From assembly GCA_017303675.1 (NCBI GenBank), contig JAFLBX010000002.1, positions 1,204,488-1,268,487 of the forward strand: a stretch of DNA of 64,000 nt, read 5' to 3'. Of the stretch, positions 21,906-36,728 are shown one piece after another (position 1 is the stretch's first letter; the number at the start of each line of letters is the position of its first letter). The notes under the pieces were generated by a model. That model made no database searches and was not told where the DNA came from. It saw only the letters and a list, made by a program, of their open reading frames with translations. Source of the DNA: Ignavibacteria bacterium (GTDB taxonomy: Bacteria > Bacteroidota > Ignavibacteria > Tepidaquicellales > OLB5). Made by a program: the position numbers and the translations under genes.

Positions 21906-24900
21906 CTAGAAATAAGCTCTGATCTCAGCAGTTCCGGTGTGAATTACCTTTGACCTGTCTTCTGCCCTGCCAAAATAGTTAATTGTTGCCTGGATAAAAT
22001 TACTTATCCTGTATTCAAAATTCACTGACCAGAAATAGCTTTTACCTGCAACCAGCCCTTTTGTTAGATCAAACGGAATAAACGCCGGGTTGGAATTTAA
22101 TATTACTTCATTCCTTGATATTTCACTGCGCAATGTTCCTTTGCCTGAAAGAGAGTACGTAAGCCTGAAAGTCTGCACATTAATATCTGCCTGGGTTGGC
22201 GAAGCCGGGTAAAAATCATTTGCCCTTTTTATCTGAACTTTAAAACCGGTTTCAATCAGCTGGTTAGGCTTGTAAATTATTTCCGAAGTTACACCTTCTG
22301 TGTTGATATTCCAGTTGCGTATTTCAACATCAGGGGCTGCATTGCGTTCGATCTGTGTAACATAATCGGTAATAAGAGCCAGGTCCGGAGTAAATGAAAG
22401 GCGCAGCCTGCCGGTTCTTTCAACATTTAATACCCTTTCATTCCCCGAAAAATACTGTATAAATCCTCTGCGCTGAACAAAGCGCAGCTTAATGCCAAAG
22501 TAATCGTAATTTTCAAATATCCCTATATCCTGCTGAACCGTTGTTGAGCCTGTGATCGTATTTTCATCATTCTGGAAAGTGCTGAACTTAAGCAGGTATA
22601 TATTTCTCTGCAAAGGATCTTTGCTCTTTTCTGATACGCTTACATAAGTATCAGAGGTTATGTTATTAAGTACTGTTTTCACCGCTCCGCTTCCCATAGA
22701 AGCTAAAAATCTCGAAGGCACAAGGTTTAATGATGCCGAGCTTTGCAGATCTGTTGTGGGGAAGAGCTGATCGGTTGGCCTTAAAATTTTTATATAATCT
22801 CCGTCGAAACTGGTTAATACAAATTCATTTTCATCCTGCAATCCGTTGCCGTTCAGATCTCCGATGTATTTATAATTACCCTGCCCCAGCGGCACGGAAA
22901 TAAATACCACTTCCTGTTTAGCAGTACGCTCGCTGGATACTTTATAAAAAAGGTTAGTATTAAATCCCCTGTTAAGGAACCATAAGTTGCTTTGCGAGGT
23001 AACAAGAATTGTGCGGCTATCTGCAAATCCTTTGCTCTGGAACTCAGGAGTATATTTTTTATCGTAAACTATCACATCACCTGTTGCAGAAATAAAATCC
23101 AGGTTCTTAAGCCTAATGCCGGCTGTACTGGTGTAAGAATTTGATTGCCTGGCAAGAGAGCCGGCTGAAAACTGGTCATCAAACCTGTAACTGAACTGGT
23201 AAATAAGATCAATGTTAAACAGATCAGAAATTATAAATCGGGGCTTGAATTCATAAAACCTGAAACTGCCGGTGTTTGTGGTATCAAAACTCAGTGAACG
23301 TGTTTGTTTATCTTCCCCGTTAAATTCAGCGGCTAGATTATACTTTCCAAGTCTTGGGTCTTTGAACAGCCTGAATTTATAATCAACTGAACCGTACTGC
23401 CTTATCCATTTGCCGCCGTAATCAAGTGAGTTATCTTTGCTTGTGATATAATCAGCATAATAAACTACCGATGGCACCAAAAGGCTATCGCCTGCGAACT
23501 TAAGATCAACCGCCCCCCTTAATGAATTAAATGTATCTCCCCTTTTGATCCTTCCTGCCGAGGTAACAACACGGAAATACTTTCCGGGATTTATGCTTAA
23601 GCCTGCTTCTGTAGTAACTTCTGTCAGCTTACTCGAATCCTGGATATCCCATACCCTGTTATACTCAACCCTGTTAAGCCTGTCAACGGCATTATAGAGC
23701 TTATTCACAACACGCTGCCTTACGTTCAGCTGAACTTCACCAAGTGAAAGCTTTCCTAATTTCAGGTTTTTGGGATTAAAAATAAGTGTTGAAGAAAATG
23801 CCCCGCCTTTATTTTCAGTATCGTCAGCATCGCTTAGCAGGTTAGCATCAAAATCACTGGCTGTACCTTCCATCACAAGTGAAAGGTCCTTTGATATTTT
23901 GAAATTAAGGCCAACATCCGCTGACTGGTATGCCACAGGCAGGGGGAAAAATATTAAAGGAAGGTAACTTCCCTGTCCCAATCCGGCAAATACATAAGCA
24001 CTGCTGCTTAAACTGTTATAGTCACCTTTTCCAATGCCTACGAACGAAAAAGTAACCTGGTAAAGGGCATTTGTATCACCCGGGGAATATATATATTTTG
24101 TGTAGCTTTGTGAGTTTATTAGTGTATCACGCTGAATATATAATCCAAGTGAATTTCCGGCAGTATCTCTGCCAACAAATACCACCCCGCTTTTTGATGC
24201 AAGAAATTTATTATCACCGGCATCAGATATAATTGTCTTATCGGTATCAGAAAGTACAAAATCAATTGGTTTATCGGGGTCGTCACGCTCGCGTATATAA
24301 GAAAACGAGAGTTTAAGCCTTTCATTAATTACAGCAGTGCGGGTTTGACCCGCTATAAAGCTTCGGGAATACTTTTTATCGGAATATTCGAAATCTACAA
24401 CAATTCGCGAAGCATTGGTAATCAGCCTGTAGTTTGTAAACTTTATCTGACCGTTGGAATAATCGATGGTGTAATCATTGCTTTCGCCGCGTGTCATTAA
24501 AATACCATCAAGGTAAACACGCTCACTTCCCGCTATAACAACGATATTAACTTCATTATCAGCGCCGATAAGACGGTAGGGACCCTGGACGCCATCCTGC
24601 CCGTTAAACGAGTTACTGTTGAATCTGCCCCTGCTTAAGGCGCCGGTTAAGAAAATATCGGTCTTATCAAAACCCGCAAAGCCTTTTGCACCCTGCAGCT
24701 TTTTATTGAAATTAAAAAATTCACTTCCTGAAAAATTCACTTCAATATCGCCAAGTGTTGTGGTAATATTGCTTGAGCGAAGCTCAACGAATACTTTGTC
24801 AATTTCCTGCAGTTTTTGAGTGTTGCCTTCCGGCTGTATGGGAGTATTTTCATCGGTCAATGCGGCAGTTATATCGATATCATTTGAGAGCTTGCCGTTC

Positions 24901-25487: not shown

Positions 25488-26642
25488 TTATTTTGTCTGT
25501 GAACCCTGAAGAAGATCAGCAAAATAGTATTTTTCGTAATCCTTGTGATCTGAGATCAGGCTTTCAACAATTGGTATTAGTTTATCATCACTTAGCTGGA
25601 ATTGGTTTGGTTTATGTTCTGCTTTATATTCTGCAACAATATTTTCAACAGTAGAAAATATCATAAGTTCTTCCCTGTCAAACTTGCTCCAGCGGTTTCC
25701 GCGGGCATAGCCGTAAACATCCTTAAAGAAAATAATATAATCACCGTATGAATCAGTGCCTATCTCAAAAGTTTTATACTTTATCCTTACCGGGAATTTC
25801 TGTTTTTCTTCTTCGGTGAAGTTATACATCATGGATTTTTTGCTGTTAGCCCAAAAGCTGAGGTCCTGGCTTGTGACCATTTTCTTCACTATGAACTTCT
25901 TCATCTTATCAATATTGCCGTTATCATTCCTTACACAGCCATGAGAAAGAGCGCGGTATTCATTCTTAAGCAGTCCGTTTTTATTTGTGCCGTGGAAATA
26001 GCGCAGTGAGTTCTCATCATAGTGCGCGGCAAATAAACCCAGCGGGTTGCCCGGTCCGGGCGGAGTTCCCGGTTCAAGCGGGTCGCTTTCGGGGTCCTTC
26101 CATGTTGGCCAGTTGCGAAGCCTGAAAATATTATAATAGCCGGTATAGGTTTTGGTTGAAGGTGCGCCAACCACATTTGGCCAGATTGTTATTAATATTG
26201 TATCGCTATTATATATCTGGTAAATACGTGATGTAAATTCGGGGATGTTAAGCTCCCACAGCATCGTTGGTGCTGGATCGAGGTAATGCTCAGGCACATT
26301 AATTGTTAAGCTGAACTCAACATGTCCCAATGTATCGTTAACAAGCTTTTTGGAAATATCCTTGCTGCCTTTAATAGCTTCTATCTCTTCATCGCTCATT
26401 ATAGGCCAGAGATCGAACAAATAGTCTTCAATCTGCGCATCGATGTTTTCAACATCTTCTATAGGCAGGGTTACTTTTTGATAACCTTTAACATTTGAAG
26501 TGTTTGTAATTACTTCCGGTTCAGTGATCTTTGTGGACTTATTGGCTTCCTGGCCGTAATCAGCCTGTGTATACAGAAGCCCTGCCAGTATAATTACCGT
26601 AAAAATGCTGAAAAACTTAAATTTTGAAGACTTTTTTAACAT
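25488..26642 (-). CDS. L,D-transpeptidase (YkuD) domain protein
   Basis: 384 aa with a signal peptide and the catalytic motif FHGTN...ALSHGCVRN. Confidence 0.8.
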   Translation of the reverse strand: MLKKSSKFKFFSIFTVIILAGLLYTQADYGQEANKSTKITEPEVITNTSNVKGYQKVTLPIEDVENIDAQIEDYLFDLWPIMSDEEIEAIKGSKDISKKLVNDTLGHVEFSLTINVPEHYLDPAPTMLWELNIPEFTSRIYQIYNSDTILITIWPNVVGAPSTKTYTGYYNIFRLRNWPTWKDPESDPLEPGTPPGPGNPLGLFAAHYDENSLRYFHGTNKNGLLKNEYRALSHGCVRNDNGNIDKMKKFIVKKMVTSQDLSFWANSKKSMMYNFTEEEKQKFPVRIKYKTFEIGTDSYGDYIIFFKDVYGYARGNRWSKFDREELMIFSTVENIVAEYKAEHKPNQFQLSDDKLIPIVESLISDHKDYEKYYFADLLQGSQTK

Positions 26643-26751
26643 ATTTTTAAATTAGAACCGTAAATTTACTTTAAATTCCTCACTATTTCAAACCATATTA
26701 ATATGATAGATAATTCCTGAGTAAACTGTAAAATTAATTAAAATTGGTGAA

Positions 26752-26852
26752 ACACACCCCGTCCGCCTTCGGCGTCCACCCCTCTCGAGAGGAGAATTAA
26801 GATTCAGATTCCCCTTATGAGAGGGGAAGAGCAATTGCATTTATGCAATTGC
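26752..26852 (+). repeat. Intergenic cluster of three GC-rich stem-loops (box ACACACCCCG + CCCCTCTCGAGAGG; CCCCT-TATGAG-AGGGG; GCAATTGCAT-TT-ATGCAATTGC)
   Basis: Read directly. GC-rich island in an AT-rich spacer. The first unit resembles the intragenic copies at 27244-27290 and 27547-27590. Confidence 0.6.
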
Positions 26853-26942
26853 GAAGAGGTTTGTTAACATAATTTTGAATACTACCCGTAAAACATAGAA
26901 TATATCATTATATCATAAATAGCTATATTTGTTCCGCAATAT

Positions 26943-27647
26943 ATGCCGGACTATAAACAAAAATTCTATGATGTTACCTCGCTGATACAGCAGGAATTTG
27001 ACCGCAATATGGAGCTTTACGGCGAAAAGATCCAGTGCCGCAAAGGCTGCAGCAAATGCTGCTCGCAGATTTTTCATATCACTTTAATTGACGCTTATAT
27101 TATTAAGGAGCACATCCGGTCACTGCCGCTAAAGCGGCGTGAAGAACTTCAGCAAAAGGCCAGGGATTATTTAACAAATCTCCCCCTGACAGGGGGAGAA
27201 AAAGAACATACCGCAGGTATGTTCGCAGAGGGGGTAATTAGTTCAGACCACCCCGGCTCTTCGAGCCACCCCTCCTTAAAAAAGGAGGGGAGCAATAATC
27301 TCCCCTGCCCCGCTCTTGGCACCGAAGGCGAATGTACAATCTACGAAGCACGCCCTGTAATTTGCCGCAGATTTGGAATGCCGATTTATGATTATAAAAA
27401 TCCCAAAAACGTACATGCATGCGAGCTGAACTTTTCAGATGGCGATGAGATAACAGATGAATTGCTTGTACCGAATCAGACTGAAATCGGCATGAAGTGG
27501 GATGAGTTGAAAGAGGAGTTTAACAATGAACAAAATAATTTAACTTCAGACCACCCCGCCCTGCATGCACCTCTCCTTGGTAAGGAGGGGACAAAAGCTG
27601 TTGAAATCAAAGGCACAACCATTGCTGTGGCAATAGCAGGTGCGTAA
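26943..27647 (+). CDS. YkgJ/UPF0153-family CxxCxxCC cysteine-cluster protein carrying intragenic stem-loop repeat insertions
   Basis: 234 aa with CRKGCSKCCSQ and a later CPALGTEGECTIYEARPVICRRFG block. The segment between the blocks and the C-terminal tail are encoded by palindromic repeat DNA. Confidence 0.7.
   Translation: MPDYKQKFYDVTSLIQQEFDRNMELYGEKIQCRKGCSKCCSQIFHITLIDAYIIKEHIRSLPLKRREELQQKARDYLTNLPLTGGEKEHTAGMFAEGVISSDHPGSSSHPSLKKEGSNNLPCPALGTEGECTIYEARPVICRRFGMPIYDYKNPKNVHACELNFSDGDEITDELLVPNQTEIGMKWDELKEEFNNEQNNLTSDHPALHAPLLGKEGTKAVEIKGTTIAVAIAGA
27180..27290 (+). repeat. Three consecutive stem-loops inside the YkgJ-like ORF
   Basis: CTCCCCCT-GAC-AGGGGGAG (27180-27198), GAACATACC-GCA-GGTATGTTC (27204-27224), and CAGACCACCCCG...CCCCTCC-TTAAAAAA-GGAGGGG (27244-27290). 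Confidence 0.65.
27547..27590 (+). repeat. Second intragenic copy of the box + hairpin element
   Basis: CAGACCACCCCGCCCTGCATGCACCTCTCC-TTGGTAA-GGAGGGG, in the same orientation as 27244-27290 and 26752-26793. Confidence 0.55.
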
Positions 27648-27655
27648 AATGGAAA

Positions 27656-27958
27656 TCAGGAAAGAATTTGTTTGGGGTCTTGTGAAGTATGGAATATTCT
27701 CGATATTGTAACTTTTGTACCCTTTATTCTGTATACAATTTTATAACTCCACGCAACAACATACCTGTATTCAAATTTCTTGTGTGATAAAAAGGGTTCA
27801 GCTTGACCCATTTTCGGAAAATCGCTTAGATTTCTTGTGGCTGTGAGAATTTTATTCAAAACAATTTCAGCGTAAGAAGGACCTTGTTCTTCCACAATAT
27901 ACTTTACTGATCTTTCAAGCTGAGATAAAGCTTTTTTAGTCCATATTACCTGAGCCAT
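27656..27958 (-). CDS. RelE/ParE-family type II toxin
   Basis: 100 aa with typical size and pattern (W...A...L......YI.......A..........L..FP..G...........R.......Y.I.Y.......V.I.RI.H). Overlaps an upstream 63-aa ORF by 13 nt. Confidence 0.75.
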   Translation of the reverse strand: MAQVIWTKKALSQLERSVKYIVEEQGPSYAEIVLNKILTATRNLSDFPKMGQAEPFLSHKKFEYRYVVAWSYKIVYRIKGTKVTISRIFHTSQDPKQILS

Positions 27959-28137
27959 TGCTTAGATATCTTCTCAACCTCTTCCTGAGTGACTACTTCA
28001 CCACGGGCTTCCTGCTCTTCGGACTCTTCAATATCTGAGAGGAAAGCAAGTTGTTTGTAAATATCTTCAAGGGTAGTCTCTGGCTCAACCCTTTCTGCGA
28101 TCTTTAAAAGTGATTCCTTTAGTTTAGTACTTTCCAT
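27946..28137 (-). CDS. Putative antitoxin of the RelE/ParE-like toxin
   Basis: 63-aa acidic ORF immediately upstream of the toxin gene and overlapping it. Confidence 0.55.
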   Translation of the reverse strand: MESTKLKESLLKIAERVEPETTLEDIYKQLAFLSDIEESEEQEARGEVVTQEEVEKISKQWLR

Positions 28138-31064: not shown

Positions 31065-31827
31065 CGCCGTCGTTGGTGTTTTCACCAACGACCAAAAGTA
31101 TTCGTCGTTTATTACGCCGTCGTTGGTGTTTTCACCAACGACCAGAATATACCGTCATTTATGCAAGGTTGCAACCGTTGTTTTTAACCCGTAAACGATT
31201 AAACATATTCTGCACCAAGATTGCTCAAGAAACCAAAATCATCTATACCTTCATAGTAAAACCGAGCTGACGAATACTTATAATCAACTATCGTCTGTGC
31301 AAGATTCCACTTGGGATGAATTGGATTAGAATGGATGTAATCGATCTTTTGTTTAATCACATTTAGACTTAACAGCTCAACTGATAGTGGATCTCTTTCC
31401 CAGAATTGAAACTCCCTGTCCTTCGCATTGACCCTATAAGATTCCAAATTTTCAGGGTTTTCTGTTACAAGCTTTGCTTTCATCTTTTGCGCAGTAAATT
31501 TGAGAAAATCTCTTTGAACATTTTGTAGTAAATGAGGTTCATGGATCCGCCAGACAAGATGGATATGATTCGGCATAATAACAAAAGCATAGATCTTTAC
31601 TCTTTCATCTTTGACAAGAAATTTCATGCTGTGGGTGATAATCTCCTTATATTCATCGTTTTTTAATAGATGTTTCCATTCAAGAATTGTGGCAGTAAAG
31701 AAAAAGAGATTTGTTGACATATTGGATTTTAAGATTTTGTGGCAGTAAAATAGCAAAAGTTTTTGATAGTCGAAATCCTAAAGAACTCTTAAGTATTTTG
31801 TCGTTGGTGAAAACACCAACGACGGCG
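31065..31827 (-). mobile_element. RAYT-REP module: Y1/HUH transposase gene flanked by inverted REP hairpins
   Basis: CGCCGTCGTTGGTG-TTTT-CACCAACGAC occurs at 31065-31092 and 31115-31142. Its exact reverse complement is at 31800-31827 on the other side of the gene. Confidence 0.85.
31199..31720 (-). CDS. REP-associated tyrosine transposase (RAYT; IS200/IS605 TnpA-like Y1 HUH enzyme)
   Basis: HUH motif PNHIHLVW, catalytic Tyr region IDYIHSNP and about 170 aa in size. The likely start is the ATG at 31720 (MSTNLFFF...) rather than the track start at 31756. Confidence 0.85.
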   Translation of the reverse strand: MSTNLFFFTATILEWKHLLKNDEYKEIITHSMKFLVKDERVKIYAFVIMPNHIHLVWRIHEPHLLQNVQRDFLKFTAQKMKAKLVTENPENLESYRVNAKDREFQFWERDPLSVELLSLNVIKQKIDYIHSNPIHPKWNLAQTIVDYKYSSARFYYEGIDDFGFLSNLGAEYV

Positions 31828-36558: not shown

Positions 36559-36728
36559 ACCACAGAGAGCACAGAGGCCACGGAGGGCCTTACCGTTAAT
36601 CTGGCAATCACTTGTGACCTGAAAAAACTCTTAAAAAATAAATTTTCATTAAAACTGATTAAGCTAAAGTTGTTTTAAATTTCAAAATGATCCAATATTT
36701 TCTCTGTGTACTCTGTGTCCTCTGTGGT
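36559..36728 (+). repeat. MITE-like element, copy B (ACCACAGAGAGCACAGAGGCCACGGAGGG ... TCTCTGTGTACTCTGTGTCCTCTGTGGT)
   Basis: Same orientation as copy A. The flanking similarity continues about 18 nt past the right terminus (TTWATRCTTTTG..TTCGC). Confidence 0.7.

Follow-up and report, generated by a model that had tools for sequence, protein, structure and literature searches.

The window (the whole stretch of 64 000 nucleotides that was analysed) contains an intact gene for a YkgJ-family cysteine-cluster protein, separated by a spacer from a divergent YkuD gene. The translated reading frame matches PF03692 (CxxCxxCC) with an E value of 1.5e-7 and a score of 32.4 bits (cutoff 23) and has 250 homologues of 159–276 residues, chiefly from Ignavibacteria/Chlorobi MAGs. 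In an alignment of 35 of these homologues 53 columns are invariant, including every cysteine (C32, C36, C39, C40, C122, C131, C141 and C160). The dN/dS ratio over 151 core codons is 0.07–0.13 against six syntenic relatives, in which the order of the surrounding genes is also conserved. Judged from these comparisons, the gene is functional and under strong purifying selection. The exact sequence of the protein is not on record, nor is that of P0168, and no tRNA or tmRNA gene is found within the 64 kb window. Two sites in the gene and a block in the spacer carry clusters of GC-rich hairpins, the components of which are listed in Table 1.

Table 1. Features of the YkgJ gene and the adjoining spacer, in window coordinates
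Feature	Position	Strand	Details and basis
Block of 138 nt in the spacer between the divergent YkuD and YkgJ genes	26720–26857	+	Absent from loci L008 and L009 (spacer alignments)
Element B, spacer copy, degenerate	26751–26798	+	R1 15.0 bits, E = 0.02
Partial inverted copy with only hairpin 2, directed towards the spacer copy	26808–26826	-	Inverted repeat I1, 19 nt, 79% complementary
AT-rich palindrome GCAATTGCA-TTTA-TGCAATTGC in the inserted spacer block	26831–26852	.	Alignment and fold
Host gene, YkgJ-family CxxCxxCC cysteine-cluster protein	26943–27647	+	234 residues, intact; ORF and PF03692 match
Variable site 1	27171–27299	+	Residues about 77–119; protein and codon alignments
9-nt direct repeat AATCTCCCC	27177–27185 (left), 27297–27305 (right)	+	Repeat search, family D20
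Element A, partner type, box at the 3' end	27179–27235	+	Encodes LPLTGGEKEHTAGMFAEG
Element A, constant hairpin TCTCCCCCT-GAC-AGGGGGAGA	27179–27199	+	Inner arms CTCCCCCT-GAC-AGGGGGAG at 27180–27198
Element A, variable hairpin GAACATACC-GCA-GGTATGTTC	27204–27224	+	
Element A, G-box GGGGGT	27230–27235	+	
First box CAGACCACCCCG	27244–27255	+	CCCCTCC(TT)-loop-(AA)GGAGGGG at 27269–27290
Element B, site-1 copy, pristine	27246–27294	+	R1 50.1 bits, E = 3e-12
Site-1 element B, hairpin 1 GGCTC-TTC-GAGCC	27255–27267	+	
Variable site 2	27522–27614	+	Residues 194–224; protein and codon alignments
Second box	27547–27558	+	Site 2; imperfect hairpin at 27570–27590
Element B, site-2 copy, decaying	27549–27594	+	R1 22.6 bits, E = 1.7e-4

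The repeating unit, of which the element B copies are examples, is ∼45 nt long and consists of a single-stranded box (GACCACCCCG), a variable hairpin 1 with covarying arms and a constant hairpin 2 (CACCCCTCC-loop-GGAGGGG), usually followed by AAT; the consensus starts with GACCACCCCG and finishes with GGAGGGGAAT. A covariance model of the unit (R1), trained on 15 copies that all come from phyla other than that of the window, finds three copies in the 64 kb window, all on the plus strand in the orientation of the gene, and none beyond these. A weak R1 match at 24180–24208 (11 bits, E = 0.28) lies inside a gene of 1177 codons and lacks hairpin 2, and was taken as chance.

At site 1, elements A and B form an inverted doublet, arranged box to box and 10 nt apart. 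In the B copy the box GACCACCCCG is followed by GGCTC-TTC-GAGCC, by hairpin 2 (CCCCTCCTT-AAAA-AAGGAGGGG) and by AGCA, and the encoded peptide is DHPGSSSHPSLKKEGS. The extended prefix TTCA-GACCACCCCG of this copy is common to copies from Prevotella, and an orthologous B copy occupies site 1 of locus L004, as in the window. The design of element A (CTCCCCCT(T)-loop-(A)AGGGGGAG, a small variable hairpin and GGGGGTC) recurs at both sites of homologues and also adjoins B-type copies in three Prevotella/Pseudomonadales loci (L128, L053 and L025). R1 gives no minus-strand match at element A, and its relation to B is based on architecture and co-occurrence, which suggest a related partner subfamily. 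Between the window and loci L001 and L007 only the last base of A differs, with pS values of 0.44–0.56 in the core of the gene; such near-identity where the synonymous sites of the relatives are saturated may point to a selected function and not to recent spread.

The remaining copies are eroded to different degrees. In the site-2 copy, which encodes DHPALHAPLLGKEG, hairpin 1 is broken (GCCCTGCATGC, compared with GCCCTGCGGGC in L007) and one mismatch interrupts hairpin 2 (CACCTCTCC); the L007 orthologue scores 37.5 bits with R1. The spacer copy consists of AACACACCCCG, hairpin 1 (TCCGCC-TTCG-GCGTCC), hairpin 2 (ACCCCTCTC-GA-GAGAGGAG) and AATT, and its orthologues in L001 and L004 (23–25 bits) have a longer hairpin 1 that is entirely different from that of the window.

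An earlier sequence-only reading of this DNA had described an ORF with two YkgJ blocks separated by hairpins, and all of these features lie where it placed them. It had treated the central hairpins as one series of three placed back to back; the first two, together with the G-box, instead form a single element, inverted relative to the box and hairpin unit beside them. The hairpins exceed what chance provides: the window has 12 perfect GC-rich ones with seven or more base pairs, three of them in the site-1 insert, compared with 0–3 in shuffled sequences. The reading missed GGCTC-TTC-GAGCC, which lies between box and hairpin. The three related copies that it placed in one orientation are indeed co-oriented by R1, with the qualification that the spacer copy is degenerate. 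Folding energies, which it had suggested computing, set two of the regions apart from shuffled sequence, namely the 126-nt central block (−60.4 kcal/mol, z = −7.0) and the spacer block (z = −5.7); the site-2 (C-terminal) copy by itself gains nothing over shuffled sequence (z = +0.3), because it has decayed relative to the copy in L007.

Comparison with uninserted homologues gives a net gain of 40 codons at site 1, where L010 has just KKG, and of 27 codons at site 2 (GEGS in the uninserted form). Homologues of 159–170 residues are without either insert, yet keep every invariant residue; others carry, at these two positions, A only, B only, A and B or different hairpin modules. The 34 loci examined yielded 19 site-1 alleles and 13 site-2 alleles, and the length of every one is a multiple of three nucleotides. 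In the AlphaFold model, residues 82–117 and 202–222 have pLDDT values below 50, and both inserts are thus predicted to fall in disordered segments.

The alleles differ through replacement and not by simple insertion, so that the insertion boundaries are ambiguous, and neither an unambiguous target-site duplication nor an exact pair of empty and filled alleles emerged among the insert alleles compared. The AATCTCCCC repeats bracket the entire site-1 insert and may represent a target duplication or microhomology; the right copy overlaps the invariant LPC codons and the repeat also overlaps an arm of an element hairpin, which leaves the reading as a target duplication ambiguous. The G-rich arm of element B pairs as well with CTCCCCT of the host gene (hairpin at 27286–27306). 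Loci L001–L007 derive from bioreactor and sludge samples. Of these, L001 and L004 share 99.7% identity in YkuD and 99.1% in the spacer, with wholly different cassettes at both sites; the total length of site 1 is equal in the two (99 nt) despite the swap. Divergence between them also climbs downstream of site 1, and the swap could have occurred by homologous recombination between alleles instead of fresh transposition.

The element pattern was found at 120 or more loci when GTDB species representatives were scanned; these span many phyla and include isolates, and the family is known from at least a dozen phyla. Cultured carriers include Prevotella sp. ne3005, Salinimicrobium HB62 and Epilithonimonas caeni. 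In 709 kb of fetched loci R1 finds 187 copies, often as inverted pairs. Hairpin 1 shows two-sided compensatory changes in four of its five base pairs, with 93% of cells paired, and its covariation score of 0.206 compares with 0.061 in shuffles (exceeded in none of 500) and with at most 0.037 when the partners are slid. The flanks of copies other than the site-1 insert show nothing but palindromic AATT. The three residue classes of core length modulo 3 contain 30, 42 and 66 copies, so that a length of 3n is not enforced and preservation of the frame is therefore not intrinsic to the unit. A scan of IMG/VR returned 11 stretches only, and phages are not an obvious carrier. No Rfam family matches the 64 kb window at its gathering score, and a search of 26650–27750 at E ≤ 10 gave best E values of 0.17–7.3 for unrelated families, far under their cutoffs. 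Full-text searches of the literature with the element sequences returned only unrelated eukaryotic primers, and those on intragenic MITEs, Vsr-like nucleases and Ignavibacteria returned background papers only.

Residence inside genes is widespread. Half of the copies (69 of 138) sit in ORFs that run for 150 codons or more from stop to stop and, in loci of less than 50% GC, 16 of 64 lie deep within ORFs of at least 200 codons, in every phase, ten of them co-oriented with the ORF and six opposite. Hosts verified with Pfam are AspRS, RecJ, a DNA methylase, peptidase U32, peptidase M15, methylmalonyl-CoA mutase, TGT and PurL; the insert in Tgt has no counterpart among solved structures. Coding DNA nevertheless holds fewer elements than random positions would (25% versus 58%), and intragenic residence is accordingly tolerated and not preferred. 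A stop codon in any given frame occurs in only 11–24% of copies.

Among the matches listed, DUF559 is the sole recurrent neighbouring gene family (11 of 120 loci). The usual cassette consists of one or more reverse elements, the DUF559 gene and one or more forward elements, although several loci deviate from this order; the domain is confirmed by Pfam, and in one case the whole cassette lies in frame within HsdR. Peptides encoded by the element occur in 82 of 120 DUF559 homologues and in none of the shuffled tails, while two DUF559 loci with peptide-free proteins have two and seven high-scoring copies around the gene. DUF559 has been grouped with the superfamily of Vsr-like nucleases (PMC3424549), members of which act as homing endonucleases (PMC2677866, PMC3239194, PMC3424549). 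The papers found to mention DUF559 describe no mobile element, and its link to the element appears to be undescribed. Since neither the 64 kb window nor ∼107 kb of syntenic Ignavibacteria DNA contains a DUF559 gene, any mobilizing enzyme would have to act in trans from elsewhere.

We conclude, with a probability of roughly 0.7, that these clusters represent copies of a small, structure-dependent, REP/MITE-like mobile element that are tolerated in frame in a functional YkgJ gene and in its spacer. Copies would have settled in two insertion-tolerant loops of the protein and upstream of the gene; the A and B doublet at site 1 has the layout of the DUF559 flanks minus the gene and thus resembles a MITE or REPIN. 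The DUF559 protein, as a Vsr-like PD-(D/E)XK nuclease, might cut DNA or recognize the folded hairpins, after which copies would spread or be exchanged by repair or gene conversion, a mechanism that we put at somewhat below even odds. The frame would survive where selection retains only stop-free insertions of 3n nucleotides in tolerant loops, and the Pro/Gly/Ser/Glu-rich peptides would be passengers and not selected features. Tolerated colonization of the gene by elements of the REP/MITE type, with added surface loops as the result, was among the possibilities raised by the sequence-only reading, and the insert-free homologues, the 3n lengths, the predicted disorder and the occurrence across phyla all favour it; the homologue alignment that it proposed confined the inserts to two sites. 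The dispersed family that it suspected exists as many copies in other genomes and phyla and as only three in the window, and it had seen neither the pan-bacterial spread nor the tie to DUF559.

The same reading had considered regulation at the RNA level, in which the hairpins would be cis-acting mRNA structures selected for pausing, processing, stability, translation rate or insulation from antisense transcription. Such a role would fit the very stable folds (z about −7), the orientation shared by the gene and the three B copies and the near-invariance of element A while the synonymous sites of relatives are ∼50% diverged. It would also fit the prediction of terminator-like hairpins with T-runs in the insert on the antisense strand only (in 26500–27800 all six such sites are on the minus strand, and no intrinsic terminator is predicted on the sense strand). 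That it is a conserved role is improbable, given that the inserts are missing or different in most homologues, that 99%-identical strains are wholly different at both sites and that the family sits in spacers, in all frames and in both orientations to its host genes; the lack of a sense-strand terminator and of a matching Rfam family points the same way. Incidental effects of the elements on the mRNA are conceivable. Selection might instead act on the protein, the inserts being flexible Pro/Gly/Ser/Glu-rich linkers or interaction loops for which palindromic DNA was just the source and the elements were exapted. We consider this quite unlikely, although the inserts lie between the cysteine blocks and before the C-terminal helix, are predicted to be disordered and, where they are intragenic B copies, are read in one frame (S/T-DHP...HPS...KEG) in every YkgJ homologue with such a copy: insert-free homologues of 159–170 residues retain every invariant residue, unrelated peptides fill these sites in different homologues, the element DNA is translated in different frames and from the opposite strand in other proteins, and the compensatory base changes in hairpin 1 alter the peptide.

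A further reading holds that the two sites are hypervariable cassettes driven by the host, in which recombination between alleles or a diversification system benefits the host and the hairpins are recombination signals, not selfish elements. The complete exchange at both sites against a 99%-identical background with an unchanged site-1 length of 99 nt, and the wholesale replacement of hairpin 1 in the spacer copy, are of the kind that such a system would produce. Neither the window nor the syntenic loci have a reverse transcriptase, a template repeat, an invertase or a store of silent cassettes near the gene, a cytoplasmic-type cysteine-cluster protein has no obvious reason to vary and housekeeping enzymes across phyla carry the same elements, and we regard this reading as highly improbable. 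The proposal, also made earlier, of a decaying relic gene whose frame is open by chance draws on the stop-poor character of the GC-rich inserts, which are stop-free in most frames (11–24% of copies with a stop in any given one). It is refuted by the dN/dS of 0.07–0.13 over the 151 core codons in six relatives, by the 53 invariant columns with all of the cysteines, by the 3n length of each insert allele and by the conserved synteny.

In-frame intragenic palindromes have been known mainly in Rickettsia and in a small number of REP families, and the tolerated-element reading suggests that one conserved element of ∼45 nt enters genes across many phyla (Tgt, AspRS, PurL, RecJ and HsdR). We tentatively propose, as possible rather than probable, that the unit and DUF559 constitute an unrecognized pan-bacterial class of ultra-small elements, REP/RAYT-like with a different enzyme, in which an autonomous form of ∼0.5 kb has structured inverted repeats of 45 nt and non-autonomous arms routinely colonize coding sequences in frame, reshaping loops of housekeeping proteins across phyla. 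DUF559 would then gain a function. If the link is causal, one of the very common 'domains of unknown function' would acquire a role, a compact new nuclease/hairpin mobile system would be open to study, and an explanation would exist for many unusual insertions rich in Pro/Gly, for C-terminal tails and for spurious small ORFs found in genome annotations. The element could serve as a marker of strain-level variation and is a likely cause of artefacts in annotation, alignment and structure prediction.

The palindromic repeats of Rickettsia (RPEs; Ogata et al. 2000, 2002; Claverie & Ogata 2003; summarized in PMC3733652) are similar in being short, palindromic and in frame in genes that still function, to which they add short peptides; both families also occur between genes and neither has a transposase inside the element. 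RPEs are longer and have been described from Rickettsia, with analogues reported in Wolbachia, whereas the family described here is GC-rich, has ∼45 nt per unit with a box, a variable hairpin and a constant hairpin, occurs in many phyla and is tied to DUF559; the distinction is drawn by description.

REPs are defined as single palindromes of 20–40 bp that bear a conserved GTAG or CGTC tetranucleotide at one of their ends, and some of them lie in ORFs, single or dimeric, where they encode 20–30 residues (PMC3733652). Like the REP/REPIN–RAYT systems, the present family consists of small hairpin repeats, often as inverted dimers, placed in opposite orientations on the two sides of a small nuclease gene. 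It differs in having neither tag at the foot of the stem, in a unit of two hairpins and a single-stranded box instead of one palindrome, in a partner gene for a Vsr-like PD-(D/E)XK nuclease and not a Y1 (IS200-like, HUH) transposase, and in a near-identical consensus that spans phyla, whereas REP sequences are lineage-specific. The window also carries a classical REP–RAYT unit at 31066–31826, the RAYT gene of which is flanked by a different hairpin (GTCGTTGGTG...).

Bacterial MITEs such as Correia/NEMIS, Nezha and Chunjie have been reviewed (PMC10969869). The A and B doublet is MITE-like in that it is non-autonomous and arranged as the DUF559-flanking ends would be after deletion of the gene, and terminal inverted repeats of the MITE type are present in the usual, although not universal, DUF559 cassette (reverse copy upstream, forward copy downstream). 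Single arms are common, however, there is no clear target-site duplication and the presumed autonomous partner is outside the known IS families.

GC-rich hairpin modules are also a feature of fungal mitochondrial DNA, as in the GC clusters of yeast var1, and double-hairpin elements (DHEs) were reportedly described in Allomyces by Paquin et al. in 2000. These resemble the present family as GC-rich hairpins in AT-rich DNA that are polymorphic between strains, tolerated in frame and located near ORFs for mobile endonucleases, but they belong to organelles, have no sequence relationship to it and accompany nucleases of the LAGLIDADG or GIY-YIG type. Vsr-like homing endonucleases (fractured genes, I-Bth0305I; PMC2677866, PMC3239194) belong to the superfamily of DUF559 and are likewise selfish and resident inside host genes. 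They interrupt genes from inside inteins or group I introns, or split the genes, whereas the DUF559 cassette has no intein or intron, is bounded by hairpins and, in HsdR, is read through in frame.

The YkgJ-type CxxCxxCC gene is interrupted by inserts at two positions, site 1 (27171..27299) and site 2 (27522..27614). The box, hairpins and three box+hairpin copies described in a sequence-only reading of this stretch are all present where it placed them; a small hairpin of element B (the box, a variable hairpin 1 and a conserved hairpin 2) was overlooked in its inventory. These hairpin features exceed chance. The central block (z = -7.0, at -60.4 kcal/mol) and that of the spacer (z = -5.7) fold better than shuffles, the elements contain 61-63% GC compared with 32-42% for the window, and perfect GC-rich hairpins of 7 bp or longer number 12 in the window (three in the central insert) compared with 0-3 in shuffles. 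The C-terminal copy alone folds no better than shuffles. The insert hairpins have T-runs after them on the antisense strand only (27179-27306, minus strand) and thus resemble terminators of antisense transcription. An intergenic GC island at 36560-36589 (CCACAGAGAGCACAGAGGCCACGGAGGGCC) consists of short CACAGAG-like repeats unrelated to the hairpin family.

Coordinates of the host gene, its hairpin elements and the REP-RAYT unit
Feature	Position	Strand	Remark
Host ORF	26943..27647	+	234 aa; PF03692 CxxCxxCC match
First hairpin between Cys blocks, CTCCCCCT-GAC-AGGGGGAG	27180-27198		Element A
Second hairpin between Cys blocks, GAACATACC-GCA-GGTATGTTC	27204-27224		Element A
G-run GGGGGT	27230-27235		3' end of element A
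Box (TTCA)GACCACCCCG	27242-27255		Element B, site 1
Small hairpin GGCTC-TTC-GAGCC	27255-27267		Element B, site 1
Hairpin CCCCTCCTT-AAAA-AAGGAGGGG	27269-27290		Element B, site 1
Second box+hairpin copy	27545-27594	+	Site 2
Third box+hairpin copy, degenerate	26751-26798	+	Upstream spacer
Inverted copy of spacer element's second hairpin	26808-26826		3' of spacer copy
AT-rich palindrome	26831-26852		Upstream spacer
IS200-like Y1 transposase ORF (PF01797)	31199..31756	minus	Within REP-RAYT unit
RAYT-flanking hairpin GTCGTTGGTG-TTTT-CACCAACGAC	31069-31092, 31119-31142; inverted 31800-31823		Two on one side, one on the other

The YkgJ homologues (250 sequences of 159-276 aa, chiefly from Ignavibacteria/Chlorobi MAGs) share a core of ~165 aa with 53 invariant columns, all cysteines among them. 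In the alignment, the motifs ..KA.(D/E)Y.. and LPCPALG bound the first of two hypervariable sites (site 1), and WDELKEEF and GTTIAEAIA the second (site 2). An AlphaFold model from the family alignment drops below a pLDDT of 50 exactly over the two inserts (residues 82-117 and 202-222), each of which lies between confident helices. Codon-level comparison of six syntenic and 27 metagenome loci confirmed that insert lengths are multiples of three in all alleles recovered (19/19 at site 1 and 13/13 at site 2), with site-1 lengths of 24 nt (a short uninserted form in loci L010 and L137) up to 174 nt and site-2 lengths of 12 to 93 nt. Compared with six relatives, the gene in the window has a core dN/dS of 0.07-0.13 (pS 0.44-0.72), which refutes the suggestion of a decayed relic gene; the host gene is functional.

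The cassettes turn over rapidly, with modules recurring among the relatives (L numbers) in varied combinations and at either site. Module A (LPLTGGEKEHTAGMFAEGV) occupies site 1 in L001, L007 and L131 as well as in the window, and its first hairpin alone occurs at site 2 in L001 and L131. The window has module B at both sites, L004 has it at site 1 and L007 at site 2. A variant module, CTCCCCCTT-nnn-AAGGGGGAG + TCCGC-GAA-GCGGG + AGGGGGTC, encodes LPLxKGESAKREGV; L134 carries it at both sites, L008 at site 1 and L132 at site 2. The metagenome strains L001 and L004 (10225-10330, 10530-10590) share 99.7% identity in the neighbouring YkuD gene and 99.1% across the spacer, yet have wholly different cassettes at both sites, those at site 1 being equal in total length (99 nt). 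Hairpin 1 of the spacer copy is replaced wholesale between the window and L001/L004 within conserved flanks, and the 138-nt spacer block (26720-26857) is missing in L008/L009. A single base separates element A of the window from that of L001/L007, where about half of the core synonymous sites differ; this near-identity points either to constraint at the nucleotide level or to recent spread. The YkuD-YkgJ spacer of L007 (9480-9943) and L010 (9516-9979) has two small ORFs (72 and 82 aa) in the place of the element block. Immediately downstream of YkgJ (27656-28137, minus strand) lie overlapping ORFs for a ParE toxin (PF05016, 100 aa) and a 63-aa partner; a comparable pair is present in L010, missing in L004, L008 and L009 and replaced by an LRR/Ras-like gene in L001, which makes the whole neighbourhood an indel hot spot.

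The window copies belong to a family of broad phyletic spread. The box + hairpin pattern, scanned over one genome per GTDB species, matched at least 120 loci, including isolates and complete chromosomes; by record titles these include alpha-, beta- and gamma-Proteobacteria, Clostridia, Acidobacteriota, Cyanobacteria, Bacteroidota (Prevotella, Flavobacteriia, Cytophagales), Spirochaetota, Fibrobacterota, Planctomycetota, Chlorobi/Ignavibacteria, Actinomycetota, Chloroflexota, Calditrichia, Deferribacteres and Cloacimonadota. The consensus of module B is GACCACCCCG + variable stem-loop + CACCCCTCC-loop-GGAGGGG-AAtt. A covariance model trained on 15 copies, none from Ignavibacteria, scores the window copies at 50.1, 22.6 and 15.0 bits (all + strand) and detects two more intergenic copies in relatives and 187 copies in 709 kb of fetched loci, with many close inverted pairs and some tandem 43-nt arrays. 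The dispersed palindromic family originally proposed is thus found in many phyla, but the 64-kb window holds no copies beyond the three. In the Candidatus Haliotispira prima chromosome (L069 6076-6236), elements form head-to-tail arrays with a period of 43 nt, and further single copies occur about every 1.3 kb. Hairpin 1 is under structural constraint: among 143 distinct copies, four of its five pairs show two-sided compensatory changes (e.g. CG 54, GC 45, AU 9, UA 8), pairing holds in 93% of cells, and the covariation score of 0.206 exceeds those of shuffles (0.061, 0/500) and of slid partners (at most 0.037). The sequence conservation of hairpin 2 is partly built in, as the search pattern demanded it. 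An Rfam search returned nothing comparable to module B.

Stop-to-stop ORFs of 150 aa or more contain half of the copies (69/138). At loci below 50% GC, 16 of 64 copies are 40 codons or more inside ORFs of 200 aa or longer, compared with 58% expected at random positions; ten of these 16 are in the ORF orientation and six opposite, in all three phases. Residence in genes is therefore tolerated rather than preferred and is independent of orientation, which argues for a DNA-level element and not an mRNA signal. In any given frame, a stop codon is present in just 11-24% of copies, and the element core is not a multiple of three in length, so the frame probably persists through selection on whole insertions and not through unit design. 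Pfam-verified hosts include AspRS, RecJ, a DNA methylase, peptidases U32 and M15, methylmalonyl-CoA mutase, TGT and PurL; in Tgt, the element with its flanks adds 32 aa without a counterpart in any solved Tgt, in which the flanks align to adjacent residues. Tolerated intragenic colonisation, one of the possibilities raised at the outset, is thus supported by the optional inserts in a functional gene and by the variety of hosts.

The family is physically associated with DUF559 (PF04480, Vsr-like PD-(D/E)XK), the sole recurrent ORF family near the 138 copies among the matches listed, in which it occurs at 11 of 120 loci, each time within ~100 nt of a copy. In the usual layout, from which several loci deviate, aattCCCCTCC-loop-GGAGGGGTG-hairpin-CGGGGTGGTC precedes the DUF559 ORF and GACCACCCCG-hairpin-CACCCCTCC-loop-GGAGGGGaatt follows it; the two copies are inverted to each other and the ORF often runs into the right-hand one. 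Element-encoded peptides (e.g. ..NHPALTGTPPEEGN at the C-end, SPPLEGW..GVV at the N-end) occur in 82 of 120 DUF559 homologues from many taxa and in none of the shuffled tails, and two loci with peptide-free DUF559 proteins have two and seven copies (35-62 bits) around the gene. In Advenella faeciporci (L170 2755-3880, in a flagellar gene cluster) the DUF559 gene lies amid seven high-scoring copies, three of them identical and spaced 79 nt apart downstream. Four HsdR genes carry the entire cassette in frame, as ~190 residues that EcoR124I HsdR lacks between its nuclease and helicase parts; the middle of this segment matches DUF559 structure 3hrl. These type I restriction genes, from four lineages (L027 983-4918, L087 3-2060, L089 2770-6864, L111 388-4173), share the insertion position, with a complete DUF559 domain bounded by tandem or inverted copies. 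DUF559 has been grouped with Vsr and a homing-endonuclease family (PMC3424549, PMC2677866, PMC3239194), and sporadic fusions to unrelated enzymes are described (PMC1829167). A literature search that covered few subscription journals found no description of the element or of its tie to DUF559, and an earlier one may exist. The partnership could be the new part of the finding.

Site 1 itself is an inverted doublet in which element A is followed, after 10 nt, by element B facing it. Element A runs from a constant hairpin through a variable hairpin to a G-box at its 3' end, element B has its box at the 5' end, and the two boxes can pair in the fold. The covariance model does not recognise element A as a reverse B, and element A is therefore best named a partner subfamily; A-type units also neighbour B units in Prevotella and a Pseudomonadales MAG, and one such case sits in frame within a peptidase M15. 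The doublet is laid out like the DUF559 flanks minus the gene, in the manner of MITE/REPIN. A 9-nt direct repeat, AATCTCCCC, brackets it, but no clean target duplication was established. Pairing of the G-arm of element B with the host's invariant CTC CCC T codons hints at target mimicry. Site 2 and the spacer each hold one decaying forward copy.

We propose that DUF559 would supply the nuclease step by which copies spread or convert one another, and place the probability a little below one half (about 0.45). The in-frame state is probably the outcome of selection and the encoded peptides are probably passengers. Against DUF559-driven spread stand the absence of DUF559 from the Ignavibacteria DNA examined (window and syntenic loci), the lack of other window copies and the L001/L004 cassette swap, which may be allele recombination. 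Regulation at the RNA level within the coding region, also suggested earlier, is unlikely: the inserts are not conserved among homologues or strains, the family shows no orientation bias and the predicted terminator-like sites are antisense only. Exaptation of the inserts at the protein level is unsupported, as homologues without them keep every invariant residue, and a host diversification system generating the cassettes is at odds with the lack of linked machinery in the window or syntenic loci.

In-frame palindromic repeats are already known as RPEs and intragenic GTAG/CGTC REPs (PMC3733652). The window also contains a classical REP-RAYT unit (31066-31826). In contrast to REPs, the module B family has neither the GTAG/CGTC tag nor a RAYT association, its partner nuclease being DUF559 instead, and it differs from both RPEs and REPs in its architecture and in being common to many phyla.
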